The translations under genes were made by a program, and so were the position numbers. Below, one piece after another: positions 2,960-34,371 of a stretch of DNA of 64,000 bases; positions within the stretch are counted from its first letter, which is position 1; the number at the start of each line of letters is the position of its first letter. This DNA comes from an uncultured Clostridia bacterium (lineage in GTDB: Bacteria > Bacillota > Clostridia > Christensenellales > CAAEEZ01), in NCBI GenBank assembly GCA_934365195.1, contig CAKRNA010000008.1:3995-67994 (forward strand). Reading direction: 5' to 3'. The notes under the pieces were generated by a model. That model was given only the letters and a program-made list of their open reading frames with translations, was not told where the DNA came from and made no database searches.

Positions 2960-3592
2960 ATGAAAAAAGTAAAAAACAGCAAAACGAAACCCGCAACGTC
3001 GAAAAAAGTGCCGCATAAAAGAGGTATAAAAATATTTATAACAATCCTATGCGTTTTTGTATTAGGTGCCGGCGCCGGCGCCGGTGCGTTCTACGGCATT
3101 AAATCCGCCTTAAACAAAAAAACTGAAACGTACGTTGTAAATAATTTAAGAGTTAGTAAAGAAAACGCTATGAATTATTATGGAGTTACCTATATAGATA
3201 CTAACAATATGTACCCCGTTCCGTTTAATATCAATTTAACTTGTATAGATAAAACTAGAGGCGTTGTTACTAACGTCGTATTTGAAAATAGTATTGCTTT
3301 TACAATATATGAGGCTGACGGCGGATTTGTTGCTATTAACCTTAAAAAACTATTTAAAGAGAACAATATTGAACTTCCTACAAGGAGCGTAGGGGAAACG
3401 ATACATAAGTGGTGGAACTTAAAAGAACAGTATCTAGACGGGCACTTTTTCTACTTTTATGACGGAGGAGGATATAATATCTTCTCGGATAGTTTTTTTA
3501 AAGAAATAGAATTTACTGCTGACTTTGCTCTTTTAATCTATTCTATTTATTTAGGAAAAGCAAAAGATATGAATTTTACTATTTTAATTTAA
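2960..3592 (+). CDS. Single-pass membrane protein, N-terminal paralog of 2165-2950
   Basis: TM segment IFITILCVFVLGAGAGAGAFYGIKSALNKKTE, the same motif as the upstream gene. Confidence 0.65.
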   Translation: MKKVKNSKTKPATSKKVPHKRGIKIFITILCVFVLGAGAGAGAFYGIKSALNKKTETYVVNNLRVSKENAMNYYGVTYIDTNNMYPVPFNINLTCIDKTRGVVTNVVFENSIAFTIYEADGGFVAINLKKLFKENNIELPTRSVGETIHKWWNLKEQYLDGHFFYFYDGGGYNIFSDSFFKEIEFTADFALLIYSIYLGKAKDMNFTILI

Positions 3593-3605
3593 AAGGAGGA
3601 ATAAT

Positions 3606-4853
3606 ATGAAAAAAAGTACATATAAAACCGCCACTATAATAACAGTAATACTTTGCTTGTTCACGCTAGGTTTAGCGTGGACAAGTGACTGGTTTACTAA
3701 CTGGAATACGGCGGAATGGACGAAAAAGTGGGAGCAACTGTTCGGCAACGAACAATCTAAGCCTAACCCTACCCCACCGGGCGACGATACGCCTACTAAC
3801 CCGGGCACTCCTAAACCGCCCGTTGATAATGACGTTGTCGCTATATCGGGTAAAGGCGATAATATGCTAGCAGGCAAAACGTACGATATGGACAACTTTG
3901 CTTATGTTTGTTCTGAAAACTCTGTTAACAAAACAATAACGTTAAATGCTACAGTTGAACCCGAGAACGCTACAGATAAAAACAATATACGCTGGAAAGT
4001 CGAATGGGTAAATCCTAACGTAGGATTTGCAAACGGCAAAAAAGTAACCGATTATATCACTATCAAGCAAGATACCACTAATCCGGCAATATGCAAAGTT
4101 AGTTATCAACAAGATTTTGGAAGCAAAATTAAAGTAGTTGCTTATATATATACTAATCCTACCGTTAATGCCGAATGCACGGTCGATTGTGTCCAAAAAT
4201 TCATACATTTTAACGCCGACGGAGCAGTTCCTTTATTCGCTGATTTTAACGGAAATACTTTTCCTAAAAACGATACCGGTAGTAACGGTTATAATATATT
4301 TTTGGCAGCATATTTAATGTCTGTATATAATTTTGAAGATTATACTCCCGGGAAAGGTGGAATAAATGTTAATCCTGATGATTATAAAAATAAAAAAATA
4401 GGCTTCTTCTATAATCAATCAATAGGTACTATTTCAAACGATATAACTTCTGCTGAAATTACCTATGCGTTAACTCCTGAATTTAAACAGTTTATAGATA
4501 GCCAAGGTTGGACTTCGGAAGTATCTACATATACCATTTCGTTGAACACAAAATCTAACGATATTATCTACAATTATCCTGAGGGTAATATCTCGTATAA
4601 AACTATTTCTACAGAGAATACATACGTTACTATGAACGATATCTATAAAAAGTTTTTTAACGTTACTTCTAATAATGATTTAAAAGCAGTCTATGATTGG
4701 ATGAAAACGGAAGGCAATAAGGCTTTTACTGAAACGATTGTTTTTCACAATAATTTTGAAGATATAACTTTTAGTGATGTGATTAACCTTGATATTTATG
4801 TAGATATCCCAGCAACTAACATAAACATTGACCAAGGCAACATTAAAGTATGA
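3606..4853 (+). CDS. Membrane-anchored protein with Pro/Thr-rich linker and Ig-like-looking external domain(s)
   Basis: RBS AAGGAGGA. N-terminal TM followed by PNPTPPGDDTPTNPGTPKPP. The rest is unknown. Confidence 0.65.
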   Translation: MKKSTYKTATIITVILCLFTLGLAWTSDWFTNWNTAEWTKKWEQLFGNEQSKPNPTPPGDDTPTNPGTPKPPVDNDVVAISGKGDNMLAGKTYDMDNFAYVCSENSVNKTITLNATVEPENATDKNNIRWKVEWVNPNVGFANGKKVTDYITIKQDTTNPAICKVSYQQDFGSKIKVVAYIYTNPTVNAECTVDCVQKFIHFNADGAVPLFADFNGNTFPKNDTGSNGYNIFLAAYLMSVYNFEDYTPGKGGINVNPDDYKNKKIGFFYNQSIGTISNDITSAEITYALTPEFKQFIDSQGWTSEVSTYTISLNTKSNDIIYNYPEGNISYKTISTENTYVTMNDIYKKFFNVTSNNDLKAVYDWMKTEGNKAFTETIVFHNNFEDITFSDVINLDIYVDIPATNINIDQGNIKV

Positions 4854-15295: not shown

Positions 15296-15328
15296 ATTAT
15301 TAGTTAACAAAAACCACTAATTTTAAAG

Positions 15329-15460
15329 TGCACCCCAGAAGTTAGACAAAAATATAAAACTTTTGGAGGTGCATTTTTAATGGCAAAAAAAGAACAAGCG
15401 TTTAGAAAATACTCGCCTGAGTTTAAGTTATCTGTTATACCGGATATGCGCGAAAATTTT
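15329..15460 (+). mobile_element. IS3-family remnant: left terminal repeat (TGCACCCCAGAAGTTAGAC) plus the truncated 5' end of orfA
   Basis: MAKKEQAFRKYSPEFKLSVIPDMRE resembles IS3/IS150 OrfA N-termini and then degenerates. No transposase body or right end is present. Confidence 0.5.
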
Positions 15461-15647
15461 ACAAAAAGGGAAAATTATATAAAAATAACTAAATTGATAA
15501 GTAGAAATGTAAGCACAATACCCCCACACATAACAGTATATTTTCCAATAATATAAATACAATTCGCTAATTATATAAACGCAAATCCCTTGCTAAATCG
15601 CCACCGTTGTGCTATAATTACCATTGCTAAAACTTAATACCGCTTGC

Positions 15648-15688
15648 GCTTCCGTAGTTAAATGGATATAACAGCCCCCTCCTAAGGG
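15648..15688 (+). other. 5' half of a disrupted tRNA-Arg(CCT): acceptor, D-arm, anticodon stem and loop; putative attL
   Basis: GCTTCCG TA GTTAAATGGATATAAC A GCCCC CTCCTAA GGG followed by non-tRNA sequence. The stems are complementary to the 3' half at 28806-28850. Confidence 0.75.
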
Positions 15689-15867
15689 TTTGCTATTCCT
15701 AATATGAACCCTTGAAAACGGGGCAAAACTATGCAAAAACCGCTCAAAATCGTGCATTTTGGCGATATGGCAGACGGCTAAAATAAAATTTGGTGACCTA
15801 AATGGTGACCACGGCGAAAAAAGTTCGCCAAAGTGGGTATTGCTATATCCTGTAAAATTTAATATAT

Positions 15868-15942
15868 CTTTCCGTAGTTAAATGGATATAACGGCGCCCT
15901 CCTAAGGCGCAATTTCGGGTTCGACTCCCGGCGGGAAGACCA
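15868..15942 (+). tRNA. tRNA-Arg (anticodon CCT), 75 nt with encoded CCA
   Basis: Manual cloverleaf. Acceptor CTTTCCG/CGGGAAG. D stem GTTA/TAAC. Anticodon arm GCGCC-CTCCTAA-GGCGC. T arm TCGGG-TTCGACT-CCCGG. Discriminator A, then CCA. Confidence 0.9.
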
Positions 15943-15946
15943 AAGA

Positions 15947-15971
15947 AACGACCGATTTCTCGGTCGTTTTT
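15947..15971 (+). terminator. Intrinsic terminator after tRNA-Arg
   Basis: AACGACCGA-TTTC-TCGGTCGTT followed by a T run. Confidence 0.7.
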
Positions 15972-16241
15972 GCATTGTAGTGCGTTATTTATTCTTTCTT
16001 AAATTCTGTCAGCATACGTAGATGCGCTTGCCTATAGTATTTTCTAAAGGTAGCCCACGGTAGGCTTGTATCCTGGGAGAAGGCGATTATCACGCCTATC
16101 AGTTCGCCTTAGTCCTTCGCCTCTGTAATTACCTTTTCATAATCCATTTTATTTACACTGTTTGCTCCCTATCTTTGATAAATATACAATACAGCAAATG
16201 AAAATTTAAGTCCAATAAAACCCGCCAAAAACCCAAAGAAA

Positions 16242-16265
16242 AACGACCGAATCATCGGTCGTTTT
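16242..16265. terminator. Second copy of the same hairpin; a bidirectional terminator at the 3' end of the ATPase gene
   Basis: AACGACCGA-ATCA-TCGGTCGTT with T runs on both strands. The context CCAAAGAAA(AA)CGACCGA duplicates 15941-15971. Confidence 0.65.
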
Positions 16266-16268
16266 TAC

Positions 16269-18593
16269 TTATACCTTTTGGAGTATTGTGTATAAATCAA
16301 TTATACTGTTTCTTTTTTGTTCTTCTTCGTCATTGTCAAATTGGTGCGCTGGGGAGTTGTATTCTTCTCTCTTAAGGTCAAGTTCCTTAAATAAATCTAA
16401 TCCAAGGCAACCTGTATCTTTTAGCCAATTTAACAACTCGTGAAGTTGGGTGTAATTAAAATTCGCAGTTCTTATTTCATATGCAAAATGGTATTCTAAA
16501 TGTTTTTGCATTAAAGTACGCGCATCCACTTCATTATAAGAGTGAGAAGTGCCATCCATGAAAGTAACCATAGAATGAATTGCTGATTGGTAATCGTCCA
16601 TCAACAAAGGTTCATTTTTGGGATCGATTTTTTTCAAATCATTTGTTGTCGGACCGTGGGTTATTTTTATTAAGGTAGGATTATCGTGATATGTTAATTG
16701 AACTGCTTTTTTATAGAAGTTTTGATAGTGAGTTGTAATAATTATTTGAGCAACGGAATCCTTTAATTTTTTTACTTCATTGATGAAAATATTCATTCTA
16801 TCAATATCAAAACTTGTGATAGGGTCATCTAAAAAAATAATTGTTTCACCCGATGCTGTTCTTTTTATTTTGGTGAAAAATATTGCTAATGCCAACGCTC
16901 GCCTATCCGATTCGCTTAATACAAATTGTATTTTATCTTTCGGTACTAACTCGCCTCTAAAATAAACATCAAGTGAGTAGGTTTTGTTTGTTCCTTTGGT
17001 GGTAATAACCTTTTCGATTTTATAATTCCTACTACCAAATTTTTCGAAATAAGCATTAATATCATCATAGAATTCGGTTAAGTAGGATTCTTGTTCTTTG
17101 TCAAAATCTTGCTTTTTTTGCTTAGACTGATTTGCTATATCAGTAATTTGTTTTTTTAGTAAAACAAATTGTTGAATTTTATCGTTAAGCAAATTACGCT
17201 GGACAATGATAAATAATCGGTTGTATTCATTCTCTAGTTCAATTATGTGTTTATTTATTGAATCTGCTGTTAGGTTGGCAATGTATGCGCCCGCTAATGT
17301 ATTAAATTCCTGTAATAGGGTGTTATATTGTTTTATATTTTCGTTATATGCTTTAATGGTGTTGTAAAAACTTTGCAAATCAAATGCTTCAATCGAAGTA
17401 TAAAAGTTGTCAAATTTATTTTTAATTTTTACTTCCATTGTTTCGATTAGTGTTTTAAGGCTCTTTTCGCAATTTTCATAATTAGATATAAGAATTTCTC
17501 TTGCGTCAAGCAATGAATGGTATAAAGTTGAAACCTTTTCATCGAAAACCTTTGAATTAATTGTCGCAATTAAATCTTCATTTTGTATTAATTTTGTTGG
17601 ATTAATATTTAATTTTGTTGGAAACTTAATTTTATTGAGTGATAATACCTTTTGGGTATATTCTTGTATTTCCTTGCTAAAAAATTCAATAAAAACATCG
17701 ATGCTTTCATTTCCAGTTAAGGAGGTACCACAAAAAGGACAATGTTCGTCAACAATCCATTGTGTTCCTTGTAAAATCCAATTGTCTATTGCAACTGAAT
17801 CTGATGAATTTATATAAGTGTTTTTATGATTATTATATAATTCAATTAAATCTTGTTTTTGAAAAGAATATGCACTGGCTAGTATTTTATTTATATCATT
17901 AATTACGGAAAATATATTTATATCAATGGGAAGCAAAGCAGTTGGGAATGCTAAATTTTTAATAGCAGAAATATTTTTCAAGTTTTTTGTTTCTTCTTGT
18001 ATTGTCGTTTTTATTCCCAATAACGCAACATCTTCATCGTGAATATCTGCTTGATATGGCGCTTTTATAAAGTCTTTCAATGGAAGTTTTTTTTCGATTG
18101 CACGTTCAATATCTTCGGTAAGGGAATCATATTTACGAGTAAGCTCATTTTTTTGTTCGTTTAATGCCAATAATTCTCTTGATAAATTTACGCTTTTCTC
18201 ACCAATAATAAAGCGAGTAAAGTTTTCTTTATTTTTATGCTCTATTGCATTATTTGTAAATACATTATCAAAAACAAAAGCGGTATCAAAAACCTCTATA
18301 TTTGACATGTCGCCCAACCCTGGGTCTATACACCACAAACCTCTTTGAAATTTTGCATTTTTACCATTTGAAAAATTGAATGATACAGTCGGTTGTTCAG
18401 TCTGTCCAACAGTTTTTCTTTGAGTAATATAAATGGGGTCGTTATTCTTAAGCGATTTAATGACGTCACATATAGTTGTTTTTCCTTGTGAATTTGGTCC
18501 ATACATCAGTACTAGTTTTGATAATTCAATTGACGCCGGGCGAGAACTTAAAAATGTCCCAATGTTTTTTATCTCTTGTATCCTACTAATCAT
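16269..18593 (-). CDS. RloC/PrrC-like AAA_13-type ABC ATPase with long coiled-coil insert, CxxC zinc hook and C-terminal R...NxxxH region; putative defence ATPase or anticodon-nuclease-like protein
   Basis: The N-terminus IKNIGTF...LVLMYGPNSQGKTT carries Walker A. CPFCG sits mid-way in a ~500-aa helical insert. The signature-like LSESDRRAL and Walker B IIFLDDPITSFD follow. The C-terminus reads ARTLMQKHLEYHF...EEYNSPAHQF. The 774-aa size is similar to RloC. Family assignment is from memory. Confidence 0.55.
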   Translation of the reverse strand: MISRIQEIKNIGTFLSSRPASIELSKLVLMYGPNSQGKTTICDVIKSLKNNDPIYITQRKTVGQTEQPTVSFNFSNGKNAKFQRGLWCIDPGLGDMSNIEVFDTAFVFDNVFTNNAIEHKNKENFTRFIIGEKSVNLSRELLALNEQKNELTRKYDSLTEDIERAIEKKLPLKDFIKAPYQADIHDEDVALLGIKTTIQEETKNLKNISAIKNLAFPTALLPIDINIFSVINDINKILASAYSFQKQDLIELYNNHKNTYINSSDSVAIDNWILQGTQWIVDEHCPFCGTSLTGNESIDVFIEFFSKEIQEYTQKVLSLNKIKFPTKLNINPTKLIQNEDLIATINSKVFDEKVSTLYHSLLDAREILISNYENCEKSLKTLIETMEVKIKNKFDNFYTSIEAFDLQSFYNTIKAYNENIKQYNTLLQEFNTLAGAYIANLTADSINKHIIELENEYNRLFIIVQRNLLNDKIQQFVLLKKQITDIANQSKQKKQDFDKEQESYLTEFYDDINAYFEKFGSRNYKIEKVITTKGTNKTYSLDVYFRGELVPKDKIQFVLSESDRRALALAIFFTKIKRTASGETIIFLDDPITSFDIDRMNIFINEVKKLKDSVAQIIITTHYQNFYKKAVQLTYHDNPTLIKITHGPTTNDLKKIDPKNEPLLMDDYQSAIHSMVTFMDGTSHSYNEVDARTLMQKHLEYHFAYEIRTANFNYTQLHELLNWLKDTGCLGLDLFKELDLKREEYNSPAHQFDNDEEEQKRNSIIDLYTILQKV

Positions 18594-18609
18594 GCTCTTC
18601 CTCGTTTTT

Positions 18610-19347
18610 TTATAAATGTATGTTGTACATCAGCCTGTCTTCACGGCCATTATCGTATAAAAAGGCTTTTTGGTCGTAATTAAAGACTGGCTTTGCTTTA
18701 TGTATTATACGGTGATGGTCTGGACAGACAATCATCACGTTTTTCGCGTCGTTGTTTGCTGTGAGGGAGATGGGTTGAATGTGATGTGCTTCACTTACGT
18801 CAACGCCATACATTTCAATTGCTCGTGCTCCACATATTTGGCAACGGTATTCATACAACCCTTTAAGCGATTGTTGAATTTTAGGGTCGAATACGCGGTT
18901 CTTGGATTCTTTTATCGTCTTAATAATATGAGCCGTGCTGTCCTTACCGTTTATTATTGCCTCTAATTCGTCTTCGGAGCACCCGTGAATAATTTTCCGC
19001 GCTTGCTGTCTTTCGTGCTCCTCAATGGTTATTTCTTCGTTATCGGCTAAAATAGACTGAACAATTTTAGTTAACTCTTCAAAAGTGTAATGTTTTAAGC
19101 CGTTGTGAAAGGTTTCAACTACGGCGTTAGGCATCCTTTTATTGAAACCAACGCGGTGGCTACCTGTTAATGGGTCAAACTCATCACGACGGAGTTTTAG
19201 GTAATGATTATCTTTGCCAAATTTTAAGGATAAATCGCTAAAAGCCTCGGTTAACGTAGAATAACCAAGCGCTTTCATTGCATCCCTATCAAATTTTGAA
19301 AAATAATACGCCATTATCGTGGCTTTTCTATTATTGTCGGTAAGCAC
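18610..19347 (-). CDS. HNH endonuclease (McrA-type beta-beta-alpha-Me zinc finger) with a ~110-aa N-terminal domain of unknown function
   Basis: CQICG...EAHHIQP...N...VCPDHHRIIH. GTG start with AAGGAG 7 nt upstream. It ends 16 nt before the ATPase gene, so the two form an operon. Confidence 0.8.
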   Translation of the reverse strand: MLTDNNRKATIMAYYFSKFDRDAMKALGYSTLTEAFSDLSLKFGKDNHYLKLRRDEFDPLTGSHRVGFNKRMPNAVVETFHNGLKHYTFEELTKIVQSILADNEEITIEEHERQQARKIIHGCSEDELEAIINGKDSTAHIIKTIKESKNRVFDPKIQQSLKGLYEYRCQICGARAIEMYGVDVSEAHHIQPISLTANNDAKNVMIVCPDHHRIIHKAKPVFNYDQKAFLYDNGREDRLMYNIHL

Positions 19348-19465
19348 AACCTTTCTCCTTTGTTATTCGTGTTTTACTTGGATTTCGTTATAGTCATACC
19401 TGTTTTGTTTGTGGTCAATAGTTTGGTTGTTTTCCAATATTTAAGCCAGTATTTCTTTTATAAGT

Positions 19466-20638
19466 TCAGTTTTTTTGACCAAACAACTGTTTCGCCATAT
19501 ATTCAATTACTTTTACGTTAACAGCATTCCCGAATTGTTTATAGGCTTGGTGGTCGTTAGGGTTACATATAAACGTGTCAGGGAAACTTTGTAGACGTGC
19601 AGCCTCTCTAGGGGTCAGTCTACGTTTAACCTTGCCTATGACAGGAATTTGAACCATTGCCACAAGAGCGGGGAATACGCTAGGTCTTTTTACGCGTACG
19701 CCACTTGGTCTAAACTGAATCAATGCATCCCAAACGGAAGAGCAATCTTTACCACATTGCCATTCGAATTTTTGTTCGGTCATGGTAAAGTCTTTTAAGT
19801 AATCCCATTTCTTAAGCCATTTGTCAATAAACTCTTTGTTGTTTAAGTAAAGCGCACGGCTTTTCCTAATAAATTCCTCCTTCCATTTTGGGTAACCTAA
19901 ACCTTCATACTGATACGTTTTTCCAAATTCATCAGACCATATAGGAAATCCAATTACTTTTTCTTTTATGCCTTTTATGAACTCATCCCAGCATGTTAAC
20001 ACTTTTTCTTCGTGTTCGGTAATGTAGTATTTAGCGTCAACGGAACCTTCTTCAATAATGCCAGATTCCAAGAAGTTAATTTTATCTTTGTCGGTGTGTG
20101 GTAATTCAACCTTTATTTCTGTTACGCCAAGTGATTCGTGAATACCTAGTATTACAACTCTTTCGCGTATTTGTGGAATGCCTAACTGGTGTGGACTAAT
20201 AATTATAGGTTCTTCTGTAATGACATATCCTAGTTCTTTTAAACTATTTTTAATTACACGCCAAGTATTGCCGTTATCGTGCGCTGCCAGGTTTCTAACA
20301 TTTTCAAGAATAAAGTAAGGCGTTTTGTGATACTTTAGTATTCTTATAATTTCAAAGAAAAGCGTACCACGCGTTTCATCCTCAAATCCCTTTTGATGGC
20401 CTGCTTTCGAAAATGCTTGACAAGGGAAGCCTGCACAAAGAACATCGTGTTTTGGAATCATCTCAGCAGCGACGTCACGGATGTTTATTCCAGAATCTAT
20501 GTTATAATTTAACTTATATGTCTCAATCGCATATTTATCTATTTCTGATGCAAATACGCATTCTCCACCTAAATTGCTTAACGCTTGGTGAAATCCTCCT
20601 ATTCCTGAAAATAGATCTATAAATTTAAATTTGGTCAT
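19466..20638 (-). CDS. DNA (cytosine-5) methyltransferase, R-M subunit M2
   Basis: Motifs FSGIGG (I), GFPCQAFS (IV), ENV (VI), QSFPD, GNAV (X). The start was moved to MTKFKF (GGAGG RBS). Confidence 0.9.
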   Translation of the reverse strand: MTKFKFIDLFSGIGGFHQALSNLGGECVFASEIDKYAIETYKLNYNIDSGINIRDVAAEMIPKHDVLCAGFPCQAFSKAGHQKGFEDETRGTLFFEIIRILKYHKTPYFILENVRNLAAHDNGNTWRVIKNSLKELGYVITEEPIIISPHQLGIPQIRERVVILGIHESLGVTEIKVELPHTDKDKINFLESGIIEEGSVDAKYYITEHEEKVLTCWDEFIKGIKEKVIGFPIWSDEFGKTYQYEGLGYPKWKEEFIRKSRALYLNNKEFIDKWLKKWDYLKDFTMTEQKFEWQCGKDCSSVWDALIQFRPSGVRVKRPSVFPALVAMVQIPVIGKVKRRLTPREAARLQSFPDTFICNPNDHQAYKQFGNAVNVKVIEYMAKQLFGQKN

Positions 20639-20686
20639 TATTACCTCCGCTACCAAAATAGCGTAAATATTTTTACAAGTCCAGTA

Positions 20687-21355
20687 CTATTTATTTGTTT
20701 TAAATTTATAAATTTCAAGGTTAGGATTATTTACATCGATCATAACCTTGGCATTTCTAGCCGCGCCATTAGAATTTCTAAACGCCGATTGAAATTTGCC
20801 GCAATATTGAATTGTTTCGGCATTTACCCAAGCAAAAATAAGTTCGTCAAAAGAAAAAGAAGTTTTTCTGCGTCTTGATGGTGCTTTACGTTCAACGCGT
20901 TCTTTTTCGTATTTACTGATTCCACCTTTTAATTCGTCATGCCACTTCTTAAAAGAACCGTCAGTGTCATAAATACTAACTCCGCTAGCAATGATAAAGC
21001 AAACTTGTCCATATTCGTCAATTGCGCGCATAGTTTCGTCATAGCCATTTGTTGGAATCTTACCGCCATCATTTTTGACAGGGTCAATACTGTGTGCTTT
21101 AAAATCCCAATTTATATCTCTAAAACCATCAAATTCTACTTTGCCATATTTTTTGCCTGGGCATTCCATAAAATTGTCTTTACCTAAAGTTTTTTCGCAC
21201 ATAAACTGAAAATAAAAACCAGGCCACTCCATTTGTTTCCAATGGTGGCAACCATTCTCTTTCATGTATTCAATTGATGCCTTTCCCTCCCAAACGGGAG
21301 GGATTCCTTTTTGCAATTTTTCAAAAATTGTTTTCATCATTAATTCTTTATTCAT
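20687..21355 (-). CDS. Putative type II restriction endonuclease (PD-(D/E)xK candidate)
   Basis: It lies between two m5C MTase genes. Its ATG overlaps the M1 stop (ATGA at 21352-21355). A possible catalytic core is FDGFRDINWDFK. No family was recognised. Confidence 0.55.
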   Translation of the reverse strand: MNKELMMKTIFEKLQKGIPPVWEGKASIEYMKENGCHHWKQMEWPGFYFQFMCEKTLGKDNFMECPGKKYGKVEFDGFRDINWDFKAHSIDPVKNDGGKIPTNGYDETMRAIDEYGQVCFIIASGVSIYDTDGSFKKWHDELKGGISKYEKERVERKAPSRRRKTSFSFDELIFAWVNAETIQYCGKFQSAFRNSNGAARNAKVMIDVNNPNLEIYKFKTNK

Positions 21356-22317
21356 ATGTTTTCTCCTTTATTAAGAGTTTCTTTAATTTTAATTGCAATC
21401 CTTTTAACAAGCGGTACGCATACCGTATTACCCGCTTCAGAGTATGCTTTATCTAATGTTGTCCCGCTTGCAAAAGAAAAGGTTGTCGGGAACCCCTGAA
21501 GTAATAGGCACTCCTGTGGCGTAAGGTAGCGTATACCGAATTTATCGTAAATAATGGGTTTGTGTAATTTTAACCCACCCATACTAGCGGTTAGCGTTCT
21601 GCAAATTCCGTCTTTACCTGTGCGTACTTGTCCGAAGTGTAATTGGTACATTTGACTTTTATCTTCCATTTTTGATTTTAAAAGAAAATAGTCTTCACTT
21701 TGCTTATCAATATAATAGATTGCATCGTGCTTAATAGAAAAATCAATTATATCAGTTAGTTTAACGTTTAACTCTTGTGGTTCGGGAAATTTGAAAAGTT
21801 CTCCCAAGTTCTCATCCAGAAAAGCCACAATAAAAATACGTTCTCGCTTTTGGGGAATATTCGCATATTCGGTTGGACAAAGAATTTTATATCTGACCGA
21901 ATATCCAAATTGAGCGAGGGAGGCAAATATTTTATTAAAGGTTTTGCCGTCATCATGTTCTTGAAGATTTTTCACGTTCTCAAGAAAAATAACTTTAGGT
22001 TTCTTTTTTTCTACTATACGTTCAATTTCAAAAAACAAAGAGCCTCGCTTATCTTCAAAACCACGTTGTTTGCCTGCAATGGAGAATGCCTGGCAAGGGA
22101 AACCAGCAACCAAAACGTCAAAATCAGGAATATCGTTAGGATTAACTTTTTTAATATCTTTTTCCAATAGGTTATGGTTAGGAAAGTTTTTCTTATATGT
22201 TTTGCAAGCATATTTATCAATTTCATTGGCAAAAACGATGTCAAATCCTGCTTGCAAAAAGCCTAAATCAATTCCTCCAATGCCCGAGAAAAGGCTTGCA
22301 ACTTTGATATTTGACAT
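21352..22317 (-). CDS. DNA (cytosine-5) methyltransferase, R-M subunit M1
   Basis: Motifs FSGIGG, GFPCQAFS, ENV, QGFP, GNTV. The true start is MSNIKVASLF at 22317. The ORF-track 5' extension overlaps the HTH gene. Confidence 0.9.
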   Translation of the reverse strand: MSNIKVASLFSGIGGIDLGFLQAGFDIVFANEIDKYACKTYKKNFPNHNLLEKDIKKVNPNDIPDFDVLVAGFPCQAFSIAGKQRGFEDKRGSLFFEIERIVEKKKPKVIFLENVKNLQEHDDGKTFNKIFASLAQFGYSVRYKILCPTEYANIPQKRERIFIVAFLDENLGELFKFPEPQELNVKLTDIIDFSIKHDAIYYIDKQSEDYFLLKSKMEDKSQMYQLHFGQVRTGKDGICRTLTASMGGLKLHKPIIYDKFGIRYLTPQECLLLQGFPTTFSFASGTTLDKAYSEAGNTVCVPLVKRIAIKIKETLNKGENI

Positions 22318-22322
22318 ACAGT

Positions 22323-22532
22323 TTAAATTTCTTCCTTTCCTGCATCCATTATATCGCCGATATTGCATTGTAATACCTTGCAAATGCGTAGCATTACGTC
22401 CATTGATACGGTTTCGTTTTTGCTCATTTTTGCCATAGTGGAAGAAGACATATCCGTTAAGTTGCATAGAGCCGTCTTAGTCAACTTTTTATCTATGAGT
22501 AATTTCCAAAGTTTATCGTAACTGACTGTCAT
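22323..22532 (-). CDS. Small HTH protein, controller (C-protein)-like regulator of the R-M operon
   Basis: 69-aa Cro/C1-type HTH (LTKTALCNLTDMSSSTMAKMSKNETVSMDVMLRICKVLQCNIGDIM) immediately upstream of M1. Confidence 0.7.
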   Translation of the reverse strand: MTVSYDKLWKLLIDKKLTKTALCNLTDMSSSTMAKMSKNETVSMDVMLRICKVLQCNIGDIMDAGKEEI

Positions 22533-22672: not shown

Positions 22673-24067
22673 CTACTCAAATATTTCTTCTATCTTTTGG
22701 GCGGCGGAACGGTCGGCTGTTTTTAGGAAGTGACTGTATATGTCGGTGGTTGTGCTGGTTCGCGCGTGACCCGCTCGACCTGCGACTGTTACGATAGGAA
22801 CTCCTGCGGCGATTTGCATAGTGATGTTGGTATGTCTAAGGCTGTGGACGGTTCGTTCTTCAAGTCCTGCCGTCTGGCATATCCGTTTCATCCACGTGTT
22901 TATCGTGCCAGGGTAAATGTTTCCGCCGTATTCACCGATAAACAGGCGGTTGCTGTTTTCCCACTTATCGCCGCACATCACTCGGTATTCTTCGTACCAA
23001 GCCTTATATTCCGTCAGCACCGCTATCAGTTTGTCAGATATGGCAATTACGCGCTTACTGCTTTCCGTTTTCGGTTCTTTCAACACCAACCCAACCTTGC
23101 GAACGACGGTGAGCGACCTTGCTATGGTTATCGTGCCGTTTTCTAAGTCGATATCCGACCATTCCAGTCCGCACAGTTCGCCACGGCGCATACCCGTTAG
23201 AAGAAGGGTAAGCATGGCCGTTTTATAGCGGATATCGGAATACTCGTCCGCCGCCTTATAGAACTTTTTAGCGTCTTCGTCATCCATATAATCAATTTCC
23301 CGTGGCGGACGCTTGGGGAATGTTATGTAATCGGCGCTAGCGTAGTTATCGACTATCAGCCTTTGCTTTTTTGCCGTAGCAAGCACCGCCCGTATGGTGC
23401 GCTTTATTTTGTTTATCGTTTCGTAGGCGTATTTTTGCGTCATATGCGTAACGTTGAATAAGTTTTCCGTTTTCTCGCCCAGCGTTTCGGCTAGCCGTTT
23501 GGCATACTCGTAACTGATTTGCTTACCTGCCAACGCGTTGGATAGGGAGCAACTGCTGAAATTCTTTTCATATCGTAGTTTCATATAACCGATACCCGTT
23601 TGGTTCATTTTCTCACGCAAGGTTGGTTTTGCCGTAACGACCGTAACGATCTTTTTCATACGGTCGAGTTTATCGTAGTATTGCTGTATGATATTCGGCG
23701 TAAGTTCTTTAAGTTTGTATCCGCCGATATGCTTATTCGTCAATTCTATGGCGCTCTCGCAGTTTACGTAATAACTCGCAGCCACTTCGTCTTTTCGCCT
23801 TTTTAGCCACCAAAGCGCGTAGTCCGAGAAAGTGGTTTCGGGGGATTGAGTCGGCTCTCCCGACGCCGTTTCTGCCGCTTTAACGGCTGTTTCGTATTCG
23901 GCGGCGAACAACACTACTTCCCGTTCCGTTTGTTTTGGGGTAAGCCCGACGGGCGGTTTCCAAGTGGTAGAGTGAACTTTGATTTCACCGCTACCCCTAT
24001 CCTTAATTTTGACCTGTATCCGATAGGTCATACCGCTTTTCCCGGGGCGTTTGCTTATACTTGCCAT
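22673..24067 (-). CDS. int: Tyrosine site-specific integrase with N-terminal arm-binding-type domain
   Basis: The C-terminus HSLRHTNITMQIAAGVPIVTVAGRAGHARTSTTTDIYSH carries R..HxxR..Y. The earlier RRGELCGLEWSDID box is present. RBS AGGAGG. Confidence 0.9.
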   Translation of the reverse strand: MASISKRPGKSGMTYRIQVKIKDRGSGEIKVHSTTWKPPVGLTPKQTEREVVLFAAEYETAVKAAETASGEPTQSPETTFSDYALWWLKRRKDEVAASYYVNCESAIELTNKHIGGYKLKELTPNIIQQYYDKLDRMKKIVTVVTAKPTLREKMNQTGIGYMKLRYEKNFSSCSLSNALAGKQISYEYAKRLAETLGEKTENLFNVTHMTQKYAYETINKIKRTIRAVLATAKKQRLIVDNYASADYITFPKRPPREIDYMDDEDAKKFYKAADEYSDIRYKTAMLTLLLTGMRRGELCGLEWSDIDLENGTITIARSLTVVRKVGLVLKEPKTESSKRVIAISDKLIAVLTEYKAWYEEYRVMCGDKWENSNRLFIGEYGGNIYPGTINTWMKRICQTAGLEERTVHSLRHTNITMQIAAGVPIVTVAGRAGHARTSTTTDIYSHFLKTADRSAAQKIEEIFE

Positions 24068-24702: not shown

Positions 24703-25020
24703 TTAGACCCTACCACTCTCGTCTTCCATTTTCTTGATTTCATCGCATTCCATCAGGGCGAAGTAGTGTACGTAAGCACCGTCAGGTTCTTGCTCGTACT
24801 CGTGCTTAATATAGCAACGACGGGTCAGAAATTCTTCTAATTCAAACGTCAAATTATAGGCGGTAATAATATCGATTCGTTCGTTTTTGGGCAATCCGTC
24901 GTTGTAGATATCTTGCAATTTCTTGGTGCTGAGTACCCAACCCTCGTCACCGCTTTCTTGAGCATAAATTCCTATAATATTTTTCATTCTTTTTTCTTGC
25001 GCGTTTTTAAGTTCTACCAC
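24703..25020 (-). CDS. Hypothetical protein (105 aa with GTG start, or 94 aa from ATG at 24987)
   Basis: It is adjacent to the stop of the upstream gene. No motif was recognised. Confidence 0.5.
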   Translation of the reverse strand: MVELKNAQEKRMKNIIGIYAQESGDEGWVLSTKKLQDIYNDGLPKNERIDIITAYNLTFELEEFLTRRCYIKHEYEQEPDGAYVHYFALMECDEIKKMEDESGRV

Positions 25021-25021
25021 G

Positions 25022-25840
25022 TTAAATGTCTCCGTTAATAAATTTTAATAGTTTTTTCTCGTTTTGTTTGCGTACGAGGTCACGCATATTTTCGCAGTCT
25101 AACTGCCGTTCGAATAGGCACGAGCCTTTAATTCGGTGAGCCGTCCGTTCTTCGTAATTGCAATTCGCCATTAGGGCGCTGATGCGATTATTACTTGAAT
25201 AGATGGTTGGTTTTTTAGCATTGATACGAGTATTGATAAGATCAAACGCTATCGTTTGCAACCAACCCGTACCCGCTTTAACGTTTTCTGCGCCGATATC
25301 GTCCAAAAAGAGAAAGTCAACCGTTTCGGCTTTGTTAAGTACGGCAGATTGCGCCGAGTTGTTTCCAAAGCCTTCTTTTAGTTTTCTTTCAATCTCCACG
25401 AAACTGGTAAACAGTACGGTGTATAACTTATCCGCCAGGGCGTTACCCATACATGCGGTAAGATGAGTTTTGCCAACGCCGGGAACGCCGTAAAGATAAG
25501 CACCGACGCCCGCCGCGTACATTTTGTCCGCGTGAAAGCAATAGTTCCGACACATTTGATAGACTTCCTTGTTGTTAGGTATAATCGTAACCGTTTCAAA
25601 CGTACAGTTTCTAAAATGCTTTCCGAGCGCGCTGTTACGGCGGTATTCTTCCGCTTTTACTTTCCGTTCGTACATTTTTCGCTCGTTTTCGGCTTTTTTA
25701 TAAGCCTCTTCACGGCATTTGCAGGCGACGGGGAAATAAATGTCTTCAATACGGCATACCCTTGGCGTGTGGCAGTTTTTGCAATAGGCAAGTCCGTCGT
25801 CGCCCAAGTATTCGTCGGTTTGTAGTACAATCGTATTCAT
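25022..25840 (-). CDS. DnaC/IstB-like AAA+ ATPase (helicase-loader type) with N-terminal Cys-rich region
   Basis: Walker A GVPGVGKTHL. Walker B FLFLDDIGAE. N-terminal CKNC...CKC. Confidence 0.8.
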   Translation of the reverse strand: MNTIVLQTDEYLGDDGLAYCKNCHTPRVCRIEDIYFPVACKCREEAYKKAENERKMYERKVKAEEYRRNSALGKHFRNCTFETVTIIPNNKEVYQMCRNYCFHADKMYAAGVGAYLYGVPGVGKTHLTACMGNALADKLYTVLFTSFVEIERKLKEGFGNNSAQSAVLNKAETVDFLFLDDIGAENVKAGTGWLQTIAFDLINTRINAKKPTIYSSNNRISALMANCNYEERTAHRIKGSCLFERQLDCENMRDLVRKQNEKKLLKFINGDI

Positions 25841-25845
25841 CAATC

Positions 25846-26268
25846 TTATTCGCCCCAGTCGATACCGTAATTACTTTCGTAAGAAATATTATTTTTATCT
25901 ATTCTACTTACTGTATTATAGTTAGCGTTTTTAAGCGTATGTTTTTCGCGTTTTTGAGCGTTACCCACGCTTATTTTTGACAGCGTTATTGAAGAATTCG
26001 GTTTAATAATACGCTTACGATAACCATTATCGTCTGTAATGCGACTAACGGTTATGAGTTTGTAACGTTTAAGTACCCCTATCAATCTGCTCACCGATTG
26101 AATTGACAGGTTTAATCGCCTTGCAAAATACTTATTTGATGCAAAACAAAACCCGTCGGTTTGTGATAAGGCGCAAATCTCTCCATGCAGTATTTTTGCG
26201 CGTGGCGGAATAGAAGTGATAGAATTCACTTTTTCGTCCAGTTTTATGTAGTTCCTACTAGTTATCAA
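25846..26268 (-). CDS. Winged-HTH protein, replication-initiator/organiser-like
   Basis: TTG start after AGGAGGA. The segment AKILHGEICALSQTDGFCFASNKYFARRLNLSIQSVSRLIGVLKRYKLI is typical of phage/ICE replication HTH proteins that sit upstream of DnaC-like loaders. Confidence 0.55.
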   Translation of the reverse strand: MITSRNYIKLDEKVNSITSIPPRAKILHGEICALSQTDGFCFASNKYFARRLNLSIQSVSRLIGVLKRYKLITVSRITDDNGYRKRIIKPNSSITLSKISVGNAQKREKHTLKNANYNTVSRIDKNNISYESNYGIDWGE

Positions 26269-26364
26269 CGTGTTTCCTCCTGCTTATATGTTTGTTAGCA
26301 ATATTGCGAACACTCGGGTAAAATTAAAAAGGAATCGGCAATTCCTTTTTAGGAAGGGAGCAGA

Positions 26365-26838
26365 CTAATCTTCTACGTCGGCGTCAGCCACTCCTTTTGA
26401 TATAAGACCGTCAACGGCTGAAATTATCGCAAGCGATTCGTCTTCGTTGTCGACCACTAGCGAATCCAAGTTGTCCACTTGCATTAGTTTGCGTACTACT
26501 AGTCTGGAAAATTGATTTTTGCGTAAGAATTCAGCCATATCGGGAGCAAGTTCCTTTCTTCCTAATCCGATCAATTCCATAACCTCATACTCGGTGTTTT
26601 CATTCACTCTGTAAGCAGAAAGGATTTTCTTGAGAACCTCGCCTACGGGCGGATAGCGTCTGTCGTTTTCAAGGTCGGAAAGATATGCCGGGGATATTCC
26701 TATTTCTCCACAAGCACCACGGAGCGACAAATTGCACCTTTCTCTTAACTTCTTTATCATTTTTCCGAAGGTAACGCCTTCTGCGTTTGCAATTACTGCG
26801 CCGTCTTCTCTTCTTGGCATAGCCTTATATTTTGCCAT
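26365..26838 (-). CDS. XRE-family HTH regulator of the island
   Basis: KKLRERCNLSLRGACGEIGISPAYLSDLENDRRYP. Confidence 0.75.
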   Translation of the reverse strand: MAKYKAMPRREDGAVIANAEGVTFGKMIKKLRERCNLSLRGACGEIGISPAYLSDLENDRRYPPVGEVLKKILSAYRVNENTEYEVMELIGLGRKELAPDMAEFLRKNQFSRLVVRKLMQVDNLDSLVVDNEDESLAIISAVDGLISKGVADADVED

Positions 26839-28914: not shown

Positions 28915-31900
28915 TTAGGCGATTTTGACGGGCAAAACGCCGCTATAAGCCACGCCGGTTTCGTGGTCGTCTAATTGCTTATAAAGTGAATTCTCGCTTG
29001 AATTAGAGTACAAGAAGAAGTTAAAATCTTGTGTGCCTGCTGCAAGAGGCAAGTACGTGCCTTGGTCCTGCAAGTCTTTATCGTTAGTTTCTTTAAGGAT
29101 ACCGATATTCACGTCGTAACGGGTAAAATCTTTGTAACGAGTATCCAGTTTGGATAGGTCGATATTAGCGTAGTTTTTACCGCCGCCGTATTTTACCATT
29201 GCGCTACTTAAAAACTTCTCGTTATTTTCTATAGTAAATATATCGTCGTAACTATTATCGCCCTTGCTATGAGCAATATCCACAACGCTTTCTATCATCT
29301 TTTTAATATCCAGTTTGAACCTATCGAATTTTCCGCCCGCAAACACTTCCACCAGTTGCGAACTGTCCATATTGTTCACGGATTTCCAGTCGTAAAACCT
29401 CACGTCGCCCTCAAGCCTAATAGCGCTAGCAAACATCGTACCGCCTATCTTCCAGTTTTTAGCAAATTCTTCTAGCCCTGCGTCTAATAGGTTATCACCA
29501 TTAAGCACCGGACCTGAGAAGTTACTCTCCATACCCAAAGCAAATAGCCCGCTATTTTCCAGCACGCTGTTTTTCAAGGTCAAATCCGTCATAACGTACT
29601 TGTTGTAGAAGTATTCGTCGTTAAGGTTATAATCATTCGTTTTATAAGGCTTTCCGCCGGCGTCTAGTAGGTTTGGCTCGTCGCCGTTTATTTTGCAGGA
29701 CCTAAGCGCACGGTTAGAGCCCGTTTTAATTAAAAACTCTCTTGCTACGGATATAACCGAGCCGTTTATTTCCACCTTAATTCTATCCGCTTCGGCAATA
29801 TCGTTTCCGTCTAGGCTAGGCACAAAAAAGTTTTGTCCTTCCCTGTTTCCGCCAAACACCCTCACCGCAGTTTTGCCGTTTTTTATTCTGCAATTTAGCA
29901 CCTTGCAATCAGCGTTAATTTCCAGCACCGTGCCCACGTTATTTAAGCGGTTTAATTCTACCTTATCGCCCTCCACCAAACTCTCGTCAAAGCACCCTGC
30001 AAGCGTTACGTTGGACAATGTTACCCCGTCCGTCCTAATTAGGAACGATATATTATCCTGACCTGATATTTTCATTAGTTGGTTTTGGTTTAAATAGTAC
30101 CCAACCAGCGGCAAACTGCCCGTAAATATTAGCGGTTTACCCGTGGAATCCTCCGCTTTTGCAATATGTTCTGCATTTATCATATAGCCGTTGCCGTACA
30201 CGTTATTTTTAAATTCGATAGCGTATTTTACAGCGTTAGAACCGCCGGTCGCTTTTACGTAATCGGTATTATACGTGCTTGGCATAGTGTAAATTCTGCC
30301 CTTTCTTTCCTCAATAGAATAAGGCGTTTTGTTATCCTCTTTCGTGCCAAGGTTTATATTCCTTCTTAGCACAACGGGTTTTTGGCTATCGGTAGCCTTT
30401 TTAAGTTGGTCATAGTTATATACTTCCACGCCGCCTTTAACCGCCACAAAAGTGTACTTAGCGCAAATATTCGTGCCGTAATTTTGGTTGCCCTTCCACT
30501 CGGCTTTTATGGTTACTTCACCGGTCCTTTTTATCCTAAGTTTTAGCCTGCCTCCCTCTATTGTGGTTTCAGCAATACTATTGTTCGAACCGGTGATATT
30601 AAAGTCTTTTAATTCAGGGTTTTCGCCACCGATATTTTTAAGGCTAACGTCAAAGTAATAGTCTAGCCTTGCAAGTTTCATATCCACAAACTGCGTATCG
30701 CCTATTGCGTTTAGCCCCAAAAGACCATTCCCGTCGTCATCGTTAAACGCAACGCTACTTGCCCTACCGACTACGGTTACGTTCACCGTTTTTTCCAAAA
30801 CTTTTGTGCCGTTATAAGTTGCCTTGCATATCAAAACAAACATTTGCTTTGTCTTTGCTTTAACCTTTATAGCGCCGTTTCTAATATTTTCAATAGTTTG
30901 GTTTCCGCCTATCGCTTGCCACTCGTAAGTTATATCGGAAGGGTTGGTTACCGAACTTGCGTAGAACGTTACTTCATCGCCTAAAACAGCCGTTACTTTG
31001 TTGCCTGTTTGTTTAACCAAGTCGGTCTTTACAACAAAATCAAAAGGTATTTTTTTAGCAGGGAAAGTCTGCTCCTTTTCGTCTGCCGAAACCACTACGT
31101 TAAACTCGTCTACGCCCGTATCGTTATAGGTAATATCCAAATCGTACAGCCCCTCTTCCTTTGGGGTAATTTTCCAAGATTTAATCTCCGGATTATCTTT
31201 AATTACGGGCTCTCCGTTAGGCGAATATACTATCGATTTTGACGTAAACGTGACTTTATCTATCAAAAACGTGTGATTAGCCTCGCCGTTTATCAATATC
31301 GGCGAATCTACTTTTATAGGGCTTGCATTCACGGTTAGACGCTTCGTAACGGTCTTTTTGTCACGAACTACGAACTCTATTACCGACTCGCCCTTGCTTA
31401 AAAACGCCATAGTTTTGGTGGTTTTATCCACGATAACGTTGCCGCTAATTACGTTTATTTCCACTTTGCTTTCTTTAAGCGGAATAGGTGAAGCCTCGTA
31501 ACTGTACTTACCCACGGCGACGTTTGATAAGTAGTTTTCACCATTAGTTTCAATAAGATTATTTTTGTGGTTTTCGTCCGCTATGTCGTACATACCCAGC
31601 CTTAAATCAAGCACCGAAGAGGACTCTACCACAACGTTCACGCTGTCCTTAAATCCGCCGTCGTTAGACACGATAGTTATCTTGGTAGAGCCTAGGGACT
31701 TAGCAATTAGCACGCCGTCCTTAGTTACCGTAGCCACCTTTTCGTCGCCTACAACAAAAGAATATTTTTTGTTCGATGCGTTAAGTGGGAACACGTTTAC
31801 GTTGAATTTTTTGTCATTATTATACGAAGCCATATCCACGTACATAGTTGGCTCTTTATCCTTAATTTCTATTCCGTTTACGGGAACGTTCACTTGCAAA

Positions 31901-31983
31901 CTACTAACCTGCACCACCGAAAAAACGGTGAACATAAATATTAGCGGAATAAGTAAAACAAGCGCTATTATCATTTTTTTCAT
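28915..31983 (-). CDS. Large secreted or membrane-anchored protein with Big_2-type Ig-like domains and a C-terminal parallel beta-helix-like region
   Basis: N-terminal signal anchor. VATVTKDGVLIAKSLGSTKITIVSNDGGFKDSVNVVV is Big_2-like. Repeated NxxVxNC/G strands occur in the C-terminal half. Confidence 0.7.
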   Translation of the reverse strand: MKKMIIALVLLIPLIFMFTVFSVVQVSSLQVNVPVNGIEIKDKEPTMYVDMASYNNDKKFNVNVFPLNASNKKYSFVVGDEKVATVTKDGVLIAKSLGSTKITIVSNDGGFKDSVNVVVESSSVLDLRLGMYDIADENHKNNLIETNGENYLSNVAVGKYSYEASPIPLKESKVEINVISGNVIVDKTTKTMAFLSKGESVIEFVVRDKKTVTKRLTVNASPIKVDSPILINGEANHTFLIDKVTFTSKSIVYSPNGEPVIKDNPEIKSWKITPKEEGLYDLDITYNDTGVDEFNVVVSADEKEQTFPAKKIPFDFVVKTDLVKQTGNKVTAVLGDEVTFYASSVTNPSDITYEWQAIGGNQTIENIRNGAIKVKAKTKQMFVLICKATYNGTKVLEKTVNVTVVGRASSVAFNDDDGNGLLGLNAIGDTQFVDMKLARLDYYFDVSLKNIGGENPELKDFNITGSNNSIAETTIEGGRLKLRIKRTGEVTIKAEWKGNQNYGTNICAKYTFVAVKGGVEVYNYDQLKKATDSQKPVVLRRNINLGTKEDNKTPYSIEERKGRIYTMPSTYNTDYVKATGGSNAVKYAIEFKNNVYGNGYMINAEHIAKAEDSTGKPLIFTGSLPLVGYYLNQNQLMKISGQDNISFLIRTDGVTLSNVTLAGCFDESLVEGDKVELNRLNNVGTVLEINADCKVLNCRIKNGKTAVRVFGGNREGQNFFVPSLDGNDIAEADRIKVEINGSVISVAREFLIKTGSNRALRSCKINGDEPNLLDAGGKPYKTNDYNLNDEYFYNKYVMTDLTLKNSVLENSGLFALGMESNFSGPVLNGDNLLDAGLEEFAKNWKIGGTMFASAIRLEGDVRFYDWKSVNNMDSSQLVEVFAGGKFDRFKLDIKKMIESVVDIAHSKGDNSYDDIFTIENNEKFLSSAMVKYGGGKNYANIDLSKLDTRYKDFTRYDVNIGILKETNDKDLQDQGTYLPLAAGTQDFNFFLYSNSSENSLYKQLDDHETGVAYSGVLPVKIA

Positions 31984-31984
31984 A

Positions 31985-34370: not shown

Positions 34371-34371
34371 A

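Follow-up and report, generated by a model that had tools for sequence, protein, structure and literature searches.

An RloC-like ATPase gene and an HNH nuclease gene in the cargo region of a tRNA-Arg-integrating element of gut Clostridia

Gene content of the locus and the surrounding element

The window, which is the entire stretch of 64,000 nucleotides analysed here, originates from an uncultured member of the Clostridia and carries an integrative element with a cargo region next to a tRNA gene. Two minus-strand ORFs of 774 and 245 amino acids, 16 nt apart, encode an ABC ATPase and an HNH nuclease, as an earlier note on this sequence had described. The features of the region, in the numbering of the window, are as follows.

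15868..15942, plus strand: tRNA-Arg(CCT), attachment site of the element on its cargo side
15946..16268, no strand: conserved element end separating the cargo slot from the tRNA, ~325 nt
16239..16266, minus strand: terminator-like hairpin (12-bp stem and T run), directly 3' of the ATPase stop codon
16269..18593, minus strand: RloC-like AAA_13 ABC ATPase, 774 aa
18594..18609, minus strand: ATPase leader with ribosome-binding site, AAAAACGAGGAAGAGC, 16 nt
18610..19347, minus strand: HNH nuclease gene, 245 aa, with a GTG start and the ribosome-binding site AAGGAG
19466..22467, minus strand: block of a C5 methylase (371 aa), a 222-aa ORF, and a second C5 methylase (396 aa)
22673..24067, minus strand: tyrosine integrase of the element, 464 aa

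The element integrates at tRNA-Arg(CCT) and circulates in gut Clostridia. Its gene order runs from replication-like genes over the integrase, a methylase, the 222-aa ORF, and the other methylase to a slot, the HNH gene, a second slot, the conserved end, and the tRNA. Seven of ten related loci have this tRNA downstream of their cargo as well, and the conserved end, which begins with another copy of the hairpin (15946–15971), shares 82–88% identity with its counterparts in L012–L014, L016–L018, and L021. Direct repeats of the tRNA 3' end or the hairpin that would mark a second att site were not detected in the window, an Rfam scan of positions 15300–19600 matched the tRNA and no other non-coding RNA, and a promoter scan performed no better than on shuffled sequence.

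The two C5 DNA methylases (19466–20656 and 21352–22467) and the ORF between them probably represent a type II restriction-modification (R-M) system that is inherited as a unit. The methylases, the integrase, and the tRNA-Arg agree with the earlier placement of an R-M system inside an integrative island, but the claim that this system is complete is unproven because the 222-aa ORF matched no restriction-enzyme model or family. Since the HNH and ATPase genes are co-oriented and closely spaced, with no terminator between them, they are probably co-transcribed at this locus.

The ATPase and its C-terminal domain

The motifs that had been listed for both proteins are all present, and the underlying Pfam matches exceed chance. 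In the ATPase, they comprise Walker A (GPNSQGKT, residues 32–39), the signature (LSESD, 559–563), the Walker B/D-loop (IIFLDDP, 585–591), CPFCG (285–289), and the C-terminal stretches ARTLMQKHLEY (691–701) and NSPAH (746–750), together with an H-loop (TTHY, 620–623). Walker A, the signature, the Walker B/D-loop, and H622 are invariant across two alignments (A2 and A3), and C285 and C288 of the CPFC hook (285–288) are invariant in 12 aligned sequences, including P0135, which is annotated as RloC. What the earlier note described as a helical insert of ~500 residues corresponds more exactly to the ~520 residues that separate Walker A from the signature; the hook-bearing insert itself, a putative coiled coil, comprises about 360–500 residues.

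The ATPase matches Pfam AAA_13 (E 8e-29) and is covered almost end to end by the PADLOC family PDC-S06 (sub-model PDLC04895, E 7.2e-125, residues 1–767 against profile positions 1–772 of 784), with no difference at the family level; the proposal of a variant beyond the reach of current models thus fails for this protein. PDC-S06 is a candidate defence family, to judge from the naming convention a single-gene one, for which none of the papers located describes a mechanism. Genuine RloC-like proteins, among them P0135, are assigned to the same family. The ATPase-family profile A2 reaches P0135, annotated as 'wobble nucleotide-excising tRNase' (E 1.6e-34, 92% coverage), and the CxxC motif, R692, and H750 align with RloC, which bears out the previously noted kinship and identifies the ATPase at the sequence level as a divergent RloC relative. 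Sequence searches of the PDB recovered Rad50 and ABC heads and no structure of PrrC or RloC.

RloC (COG4694, AAA_13; Geobacillus kaustophilus RloC) is a wobble-nucleotide-excising anticodon nuclease. It shares with the ATPase the architecture of a single polypeptide of about 770–810 residues, with a split ABC head, a long insert with an invariant CxxC hook, and a C-terminal helical domain, in which R692 and H750 of the ATPase align with two residues of the RloC nuclease triad, R692 and H737. Also the mobile, R-M-adjacent setting and the link at the profile level are common to both. By contrast, the identity to the RloC-like proteins compared is only 17–20%, the usual 'SH' is replaced by 'PAH', and the PADLOC PrrC model, which does match the RloC-like proteins P0135–P0138, did not match the ATPase at E ≤ 0.1. 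Moreover, the RloC nuclease triad Arg-X3-Glu-X36-52-His (PMC2610378) is not conserved in the ATPase, which has a Gln (Q696) at position +4, a Glu (E700) at position +8, and a spacing of 53 between the position of the triad Glu and the His.

A second relevant comparison is PrrC, an anticodon nuclease of Escherichia coli that is associated with the type Ic R-M system EcoprrI. The predicted domain order of the ATPase matches that of PrrC, in which a HEPN-type nuclease domain forms the C-terminus behind an ABC NTPase; both proteins also have an upstream Arg and an Asn located four residues before the His (N352/H356 in PrrC, N746/H750 in the ATPase). However, PrrC lacks a coiled-coil/zinc-hook insert, is encoded among hsd genes, and strictly requires Glu324, whereas the ATPase is not recognized by the PADLOC PrrC model and has type II C5 methylases as neighbours.

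Whether the ATPase is a tRNase is uncertain because the triad Glu is a Gln and the PrrC model is unmatched. The Gln pointed out by the earlier note is real and occurs in every relative with at least 47% identity. The E324Q variant of PrrC, which alters the position equivalent to Q696, is inactive (PMC3025547, Table 1), as are PrrC E324D and E324A and RloC E696A (PMC3025547, PMC2610378). Together with the missing PrrC match, this argues for a tail that has lost anticodon-nuclease activity and serves another output, such as DNA tethering or the recruitment of a factor, an alternative with a minor but appreciable chance of being correct. It is weakened by the observation that the Gln-bearing clade retains an invariant R692, a near-invariant H750, N746, and the helices around them, and that E700 and Q696 vary together, suggesting that the acidic residue has been relocated. 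In addition, the C-terminal domain is predicted to fold with confidence (pLDDT 87), and its nearest resemblance in the predicted model is to HEPN toxins, the top PDB matches of a fold search in which none of the similarities was significant (E about 1, TM 0.35–0.45).

With these qualifications, we favour a model in which the ATPase would act as a self-contained abortive-infection enzyme of the RloC type. The Rad50-like ABC head with its zinc-hook coiled coil would sense a cue from DNA or infection, which would free the C-terminal HEPN-like RNase to cut the anticodon loops of tRNAs; the catalytic acid appears to have shifted from +4 (Q696) to +8 (E700) in this clade.

The HNH protein and its neighbours

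The HNH protein combines a helical N-domain (about residues 1–135) with a zinc-finger HNH domain of the McrA/TagI type (about residues 155–245), which contains the motifs CQIC (169–172), AHH (187–189), and CPDHH (208–212). Matches to the Pfam families HNH and HNH_2 lie just above the gathering cut-offs. A PDB profile search matched TagI (6ghs) and EcoKMcrA (6ghc), which are also the top Foldseek matches (probability 1.0, E 1.5e-3); the closest relatives of the HNH domain are EcoKMcrA, TagI, and Cap5, and ScoMcrA (5zmm) aligns over the HNH part only. There are weak matches to PADLOC mREase_IV and NCBIfam PT-DNA_restrict, and the score against NF045808 (PT-DNA-binding restriction endonuclease) is 33.8 bits compared with a cut-off of 180. 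As in the Type IV enzymes EcoKMcrA, TagI, and ScoMcrA, a C-terminal CxxC...HH...N...CxxHH finger follows a separate N-domain; unlike in those enzymes, the N-domain does not correspond to any known reader domain in Pfam, by PDB profile, or by fold.

The N-domain, rightly called uncharacterised in the earlier note, has a confidently helical predicted fold. It belongs to no Pfam family, yielded only chance matches when searched alone against PDB profiles, and stayed unmatched when Foldseek was run with the full model. Homologous domains, which form 636 clusters at 50% identity, also occur in fusion with McrB-like AAA_5 ('REase_II') proteins, a TIR domain resembling ThsB, and further HNH domains. 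In view of the missing structural and profile matches, it is these fusion partners that fit a function as sensor or reader; the N-domain is probably a reader of a target or modification, in which case the HNH protein would be an autonomous McrA/TagI-like DNA nuclease engaged in Type IV-like restriction.

The survey of HNH loci other than the window covered 24 genome loci, plus L036–L049 and L053–L057, and the ATPase is present in none of them. Among them are ten loci in genomes of other Clostridia with an HNH protein that is 90–98% identical, none with a match to the ATPase; nine are informative for the downstream slot, whereas L015 is not because its available downstream sequence amounts to only about 220 nt. 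The downstream slot is occupied by genes for a caspase (L013), ApeA-HEPN/PDC-S58 (L018), a UvrD-like helicase (L020, L054–L057), Pycsar PycC and PycTM (L053), DUF7678, or unknown proteins, and the upstream slot by DUF2971, TIR, T5orf172, or PIN_12 genes. The constant HNH gene is thus flanked by variable genes on both sides, at distances of 10–45 nt. This arrangement is the reverse of homing-gene polymorphism, and a homing endonuclease was rejected for this reason.

The constancy of the HNH gene amid changing neighbours might also indicate a common hub or effector for whichever gene adjoins it, with the ATPase as one of several interchangeable sensors. The purifying selection acting on the gene and the wide use of the N-domain as a fusion module in defence proteins would fit such a role. 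Nevertheless, many of the neighbours are complete systems or effectors in their own right (the RloC-like ATPase, Pycsar, ApeA-HEPN, TIR, PIN, and caspase), the same cassettes are also present at loci that lack the HNH gene, and the operons of more distant HNH homologues are of a very different kind, Dcm-Vsr-HNH-NUDIX being one example. These observations render a hub function distinctly unlikely; physical cooperation of the HNH protein with the cassette beside it is likewise unlikely.

There is a small chance that the HNH protein is the type II restriction endonuclease of the adjacent C5 methylase and that the ATPase guards this R-M system in the manner of PrrC. The HNH gene starts 119 nt downstream of the 396-aa methylase, homologues with 53–55% identity likewise come last in operons headed by a methylase, an R-M linkage is known for PrrC and some RloC genes (PMC2610378), and a 95% identical copy of the ATPase (L051) likewise follows an R-M pair. 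However, within 6 kb of near-identical HNH genes (90–97% identity; L013, L014, L017, L020, and L021), C5 methylases are different or absent and the 396-aa methylase has no orthologue, which disfavours a type II enzyme because such an enzyme would be intolerable without its cognate methylase. The 222-aa ORF is a separate candidate restriction enzyme co-inherited with both methylases, and relatives of the ATPase in L010 and L011 have no R-M gene nearby.

Cassette exchange beside the HNH gene

The relatives of the ATPase that were examined (48–99% identity) do not adjoin an intact HNH gene in any other locus. The closest (L050; 99% identity) belongs to another copy of this element, about 96% identical in DNA sequence, in which a 592-bp deletion corresponding to window positions 18845–19436 has removed HNH codons 1–168 and left the ATPase intact. 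This deletion could be recent and deleterious. In L051 and L052 (95%), the ATPase cassette follows an NgoBV-type R-M pair and a gene for a 106-aa membrane protein, and in L007–L009 (77%), L010 (72%), and L011 and L001–L006 (48%), tblastn detected no similarity to the HNH protein. There is also no sign of a conserved small partner, as the upstream neighbours of the ATPase in other loci share no relationship with the HNH protein or among themselves.

The limits of DNA homology coincide with the gene boundaries. Breakpoints are located at 19346/7, 18609/10, and 16266–16273, and homology with HNH-bearing relatives stops at the HNH stop codon and restarts at the stop codon of the ATPase. Conversely, homology with L051 and L052 begins exactly at 18609, and L051 possesses the same 16-nt leader behind unrelated upstream DNA, so that the leader moves with the ATPase and not with the HNH gene. 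The hairpin also stays with the ATPase elsewhere, as homology extends to 16239 in L007–L009 and to 16188 in L051. The region from 16188/16239 to 18609 is therefore a single swappable cassette, consisting of leader, ATPase ORF, and terminator, which fills the slot that follows the HNH gene.

These observations bear directly on the Septu-like two-gene module proposed in the earlier note, in which the ATPase would license the HNH nuclease or both proteins would act as effectors. Septu pairs an ATPase (PtuA) with an HNH nuclease (PtuB), and pairs of this kind therefore exist; the shared strand and the short, terminator-free gap give the two genes a superficial resemblance to that system. However, the gene order is opposite, neither protein matches PtuA or PtuB in PADLOC at E ≤ 0.1, and the cassette boundaries lie precisely at the junction of the two genes. 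Viewed from the ATPase side or from the HNH side, the loci examined contain no second intact pair, an outcome that the earlier note had named as refuting its proposal, and L050 maintains a nearly identical ATPase beside a truncated HNH gene. A joint system is accordingly highly improbable, and the evidence makes it likely that the HNH nuclease and the ATPase represent two independent modules, placed next to each other in the cargo of the integrative element. On comparative data alone, the two proteins might still cooperate functionally in the strain represented by the window.

The HNH gene is much less diverged (dS 0.11–0.30) than the backbone genes (0.56–1.67) and is under purifying selection (dN/dS about 0.05–0.13). 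Cassettes were probably swapped by double crossover between related elements, with the conserved HNH gene and the att-proximal flank as putative homology arms; the low divergence of the HNH gene would follow from such a role. A comparable arrangement is found in the defence hotspots of other integrative elements, such as those of the SXT ICE and P4-like satellites, where conserved flanking genes bracket slots with differing defence genes. The present element differs from these in that the gene serving as anchor encodes a nuclease and is bordered by a variable slot on either side, the breakpoints lie at the start and stop codons of that gene, and its dS is below that of the backbone.

It is conceivable, albeit rather doubtful, that the Q696/E700 clade represents a variant form of RloC that still functions, with its catalytic acid displaced by one helical turn, and that the HNH protein represents a new family of Type IV-like restriction enzymes. 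The clade, if functional, possibly has a changed RNA target. The N-domain of the HNH protein may be a new reader of DNA or of its modifications that is common to McrB-like and TIR effectors, and the HNH gene may double as a recombination anchor for ORF-precise swaps of defence cassettes on both sides.

The comparison of a handful of related loci was enough to settle the question of pairing and removes a false lead, as the tight spacing of defence-type genes in mobile cargo is not evidence of a system. It also raises the questions of whether an RloC-type nuclease can work with a Gln in place of the canonical Glu and what the unnamed N-domain of the HNH protein recognizes. The locus also illustrates, at high resolution, a defence hotspot of gut Clostridia, in which complete cassettes of leader, ORF, and terminator are exchanged at codon-exact boundaries beside a conserved nuclease gene.

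A defence-cargo region next to tRNA-Arg(CCT)

The locus is the part of a tRNA-Arg integrative element that carries its defence cargo; here, an RloC-like cassette of the PADLOC candidate class PDC-S06 stands by happenstance behind a conserved McrA-like HNH gene. The two ORFs, separated by 16 nt, are as the earlier note described them, and every motif that it quoted was found at the given position; its account of the surroundings is likewise correct.

Features of the locus (window coordinates)
15868-15942: tRNA-Arg(CCT)
16269-18593, minus strand: ATPase gene (774 aa; Pfam AAA_13, E 8e-29)
18610-19347, minus strand: HNH gene (245 aa; Pfam HNH and HNH_2, scores barely over threshold)
18943-19347: unnamed helical N-domain (HNH protein residues 1-135)
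19466-22467: two C5 DNA methylases with a 222-aa ORF between them
20687-21355: the 222-aa ORF, overlapping the upstream methylase by 4 nt
22673-24067: tyrosine integrase

The 222-aa ORF, which had no match in Pfam and PADLOC searches, is co-inherited with both C5 methylases in four other loci (L012, L015, L018, and L050) and probably encodes the restriction enzyme of a type II system with two methylases.

Probably independent neighbours and proposed cassette exchange

The proposal that the HNH protein and the ATPase form a two-gene Septu-like system is not supported: a gene-neighbourhood survey run from both sides found no intact pair at the other loci examined, and neither PtuA nor PtuB was matched. 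The HNH family (>175 clusters) is far larger than that of the ATPase, which has only 13-18 relatives in a set of 5.8 billion proteins. Among 24 HNH loci (one genome per species), ten from different Clostridia MAGs (Christensenellaceae, Acutalibacteraceae, and others) encode an HNH protein 90-98% identical to that of the window. None of these ten has an ATPase match, with downstream DNA sufficient to exclude the gene in nine; each locus has a different gene following the HNH gene at a distance of 10-45 nt, and the same tRNA-Arg(CCT) as in the window lies farther downstream in seven. This downstream slot holds a caspase-like protein, ApeA-HEPN (PDC-S58), a UvrD-like helicase with or without DUF2290, DUF7678, a complete Pycsar pair (PycC and PycTM), or unknowns; the slot upstream of the HNH gene holds DUF2971, TIR, T5orf172, or PIN_12. 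The Pycsar system (AGS_C cyclase and PycTM effector; L053, 3031-5319) follows an HNH gene 95% identical to that of the window and occupies the slot corresponding to the ATPase. Upstream of the conserved HNH gene in L014, two N6/N4 DNA methylases flank a second HNH paralogue (3160-3900; 246 aa, 24% identical).

Seen from the ATPase side, the closest copy (99% identical) is in L050, which represents the same element (~96% DNA identity to the window); there, a 592-bp deletion (window 18845-19436) spares only HNH codons 169-245 and leaves the ATPase intact. In L051 and L052, the genes ahead of the ATPase (95% identical) encode an unrelated C5 methylase, a restriction enzyme of the NgoBV type, and a membrane protein of 106 aa; homology to the window starts at 18609, the first base past the HNH stop codon, and takes in the 16-nt leader. 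Copies at 77%, 72%, and 48% identity are preceded by unrelated genes or an integrase, with no HNH similarity nearby by tblastn (the upstream DNA of the 77% copies spans only 480-566 nt). A search of the upstream neighbours for a common alternative partner of the ATPase found none; they are mutually unrelated.

In blastn comparisons, homology to the window is lost at either end of the HNH ORF (19346/7 and 18609/10) and regained at 16266-16273, at the ATPase stop codon and an adjoining hairpin, from where it continues up to the tRNA. The dS of the HNH gene is 0.11-0.30 vs 0.56-1.67 for the backbone, and its dN/dS is ~0.05-0.13. We read the breakpoint pattern and the low divergence of the HNH gene as cassette exchange by a double crossover whose homology arms would be the HNH gene and the att-proximal flank.

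Ends and extent of the element

The 26-nt terminator-like hairpin is present in two copies (88% identical), one abutting the tRNA 3' end (15946-15971) and the other the ATPase stop codon (16241-16266), which bracket a conserved element end of ~270 nt. Some copies of the element carry an inserted ORF of 339 aa, on the opposite strand, between hairpin and tRNA (L012, 4277-5296; L014, 7565-8584; L050, 10650-11669, identified there as DUF4238 by Pfam); this site, with its breakpoint at window 15945, is a third variable slot. Upstream of the intact tRNA, at a distance of 220 nt, lies a 38-nt copy of the 5' half of tRNA-Arg(CCT) (15650-15687; 95% identical); it may be a relic of an earlier integration, and the arrangement is kept along with the tRNA in L012-L014, L017, and L018. 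The short ORF at 15380-15460 begins MAKKEQAFRKYSPEFKLSVI, which, as read, resembles the N-terminus of a fragmentary IS3-type transposase.

Past the integrase, genes for a DnaA/IstB-like ATPase, an HTH_36 protein, and an HTH/control-like protein (24703-26838) are shared with L050 and L051, and the element therefore reaches beyond 26.8 kb; no distal end was found. A series of very large ORFs (1022, 559, 238, and 1870 aa), all on the minus strand, occupies 28915-39984.

Affiliation of the two proteins

PADLOC, recommended in the earlier note, covers the ATPase with a full-length match to PDC-S06 (sub-model PDLC04895, E 7e-125), and its PtuA, PtuB, and PrrC models gave no match at E <= 0.1. The ATPase family profile finds P0135 (E 1.6e-34), named a "wobble nucleotide-excising tRNase" by one source; this and three further RloC-like proteins (P0136-P0138) are themselves PDC-S06 and also match the PrrC model. 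A joint alignment shows no variation at C285, C288, and R692 and almost none at H750; the cysteines align with the zinc hook of RloC, and R692 and H750 with the Arg and His of its published motif, Arg-X3-Glu-X36-52-His (PMC2610378). The RloC-like reading is supported by the hook, the Arg, the His, and the profile link to P0135, but the triad Glu, a defining feature, is absent.

Residues following the invariant Arg (ATPase residues 692-700; window 16494-16520)
Window ATPase and all relatives at least 47% identical: +4 Gln (Q696), +8 Glu (E700)
More distant relatives: +4 Glu; +8 Lys, Asn, or Ser

Gln at +4 is always paired with Glu at +8, and this co-variation suggests that the catalytic acid was relocated in the Gln clade. 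The predicted nuclease activity is uncertain because the E324Q variant of PrrC is inactive (PMC3025547, Table 1). The modelled C-terminal domain is helical (pLDDT 87, pTM 0.71), and HEPN toxins head its list of PDB matches, though at an E of about 1; a sequence search of the PDB for a PrrC or RloC structure returned none.

In the model of the HNH protein (pLDDT 86), a linker joins the helical N-domain to an HNH domain nearest to those of EcoKMcrA, TagI, and Cap5; the match to the NCBIfam model for PT-DNA restriction is weak (33.8 bits; cut-off 180). The N-domain has no match in Pfam and PDB but is widespread, recurring in 636 clusters (50% identity) at E <= 1e-3, located N- or C-terminally and fused to HNH, McrB-like AAA_5 "REase_II" proteins, or a ThsB-like TIR domain. 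Judged by its fusion partners, it fits a target-sensing domain of restriction-type proteins and is a candidate for a new sensor or reader domain. The ATPase and the HNH protein each belong to already known kinds.
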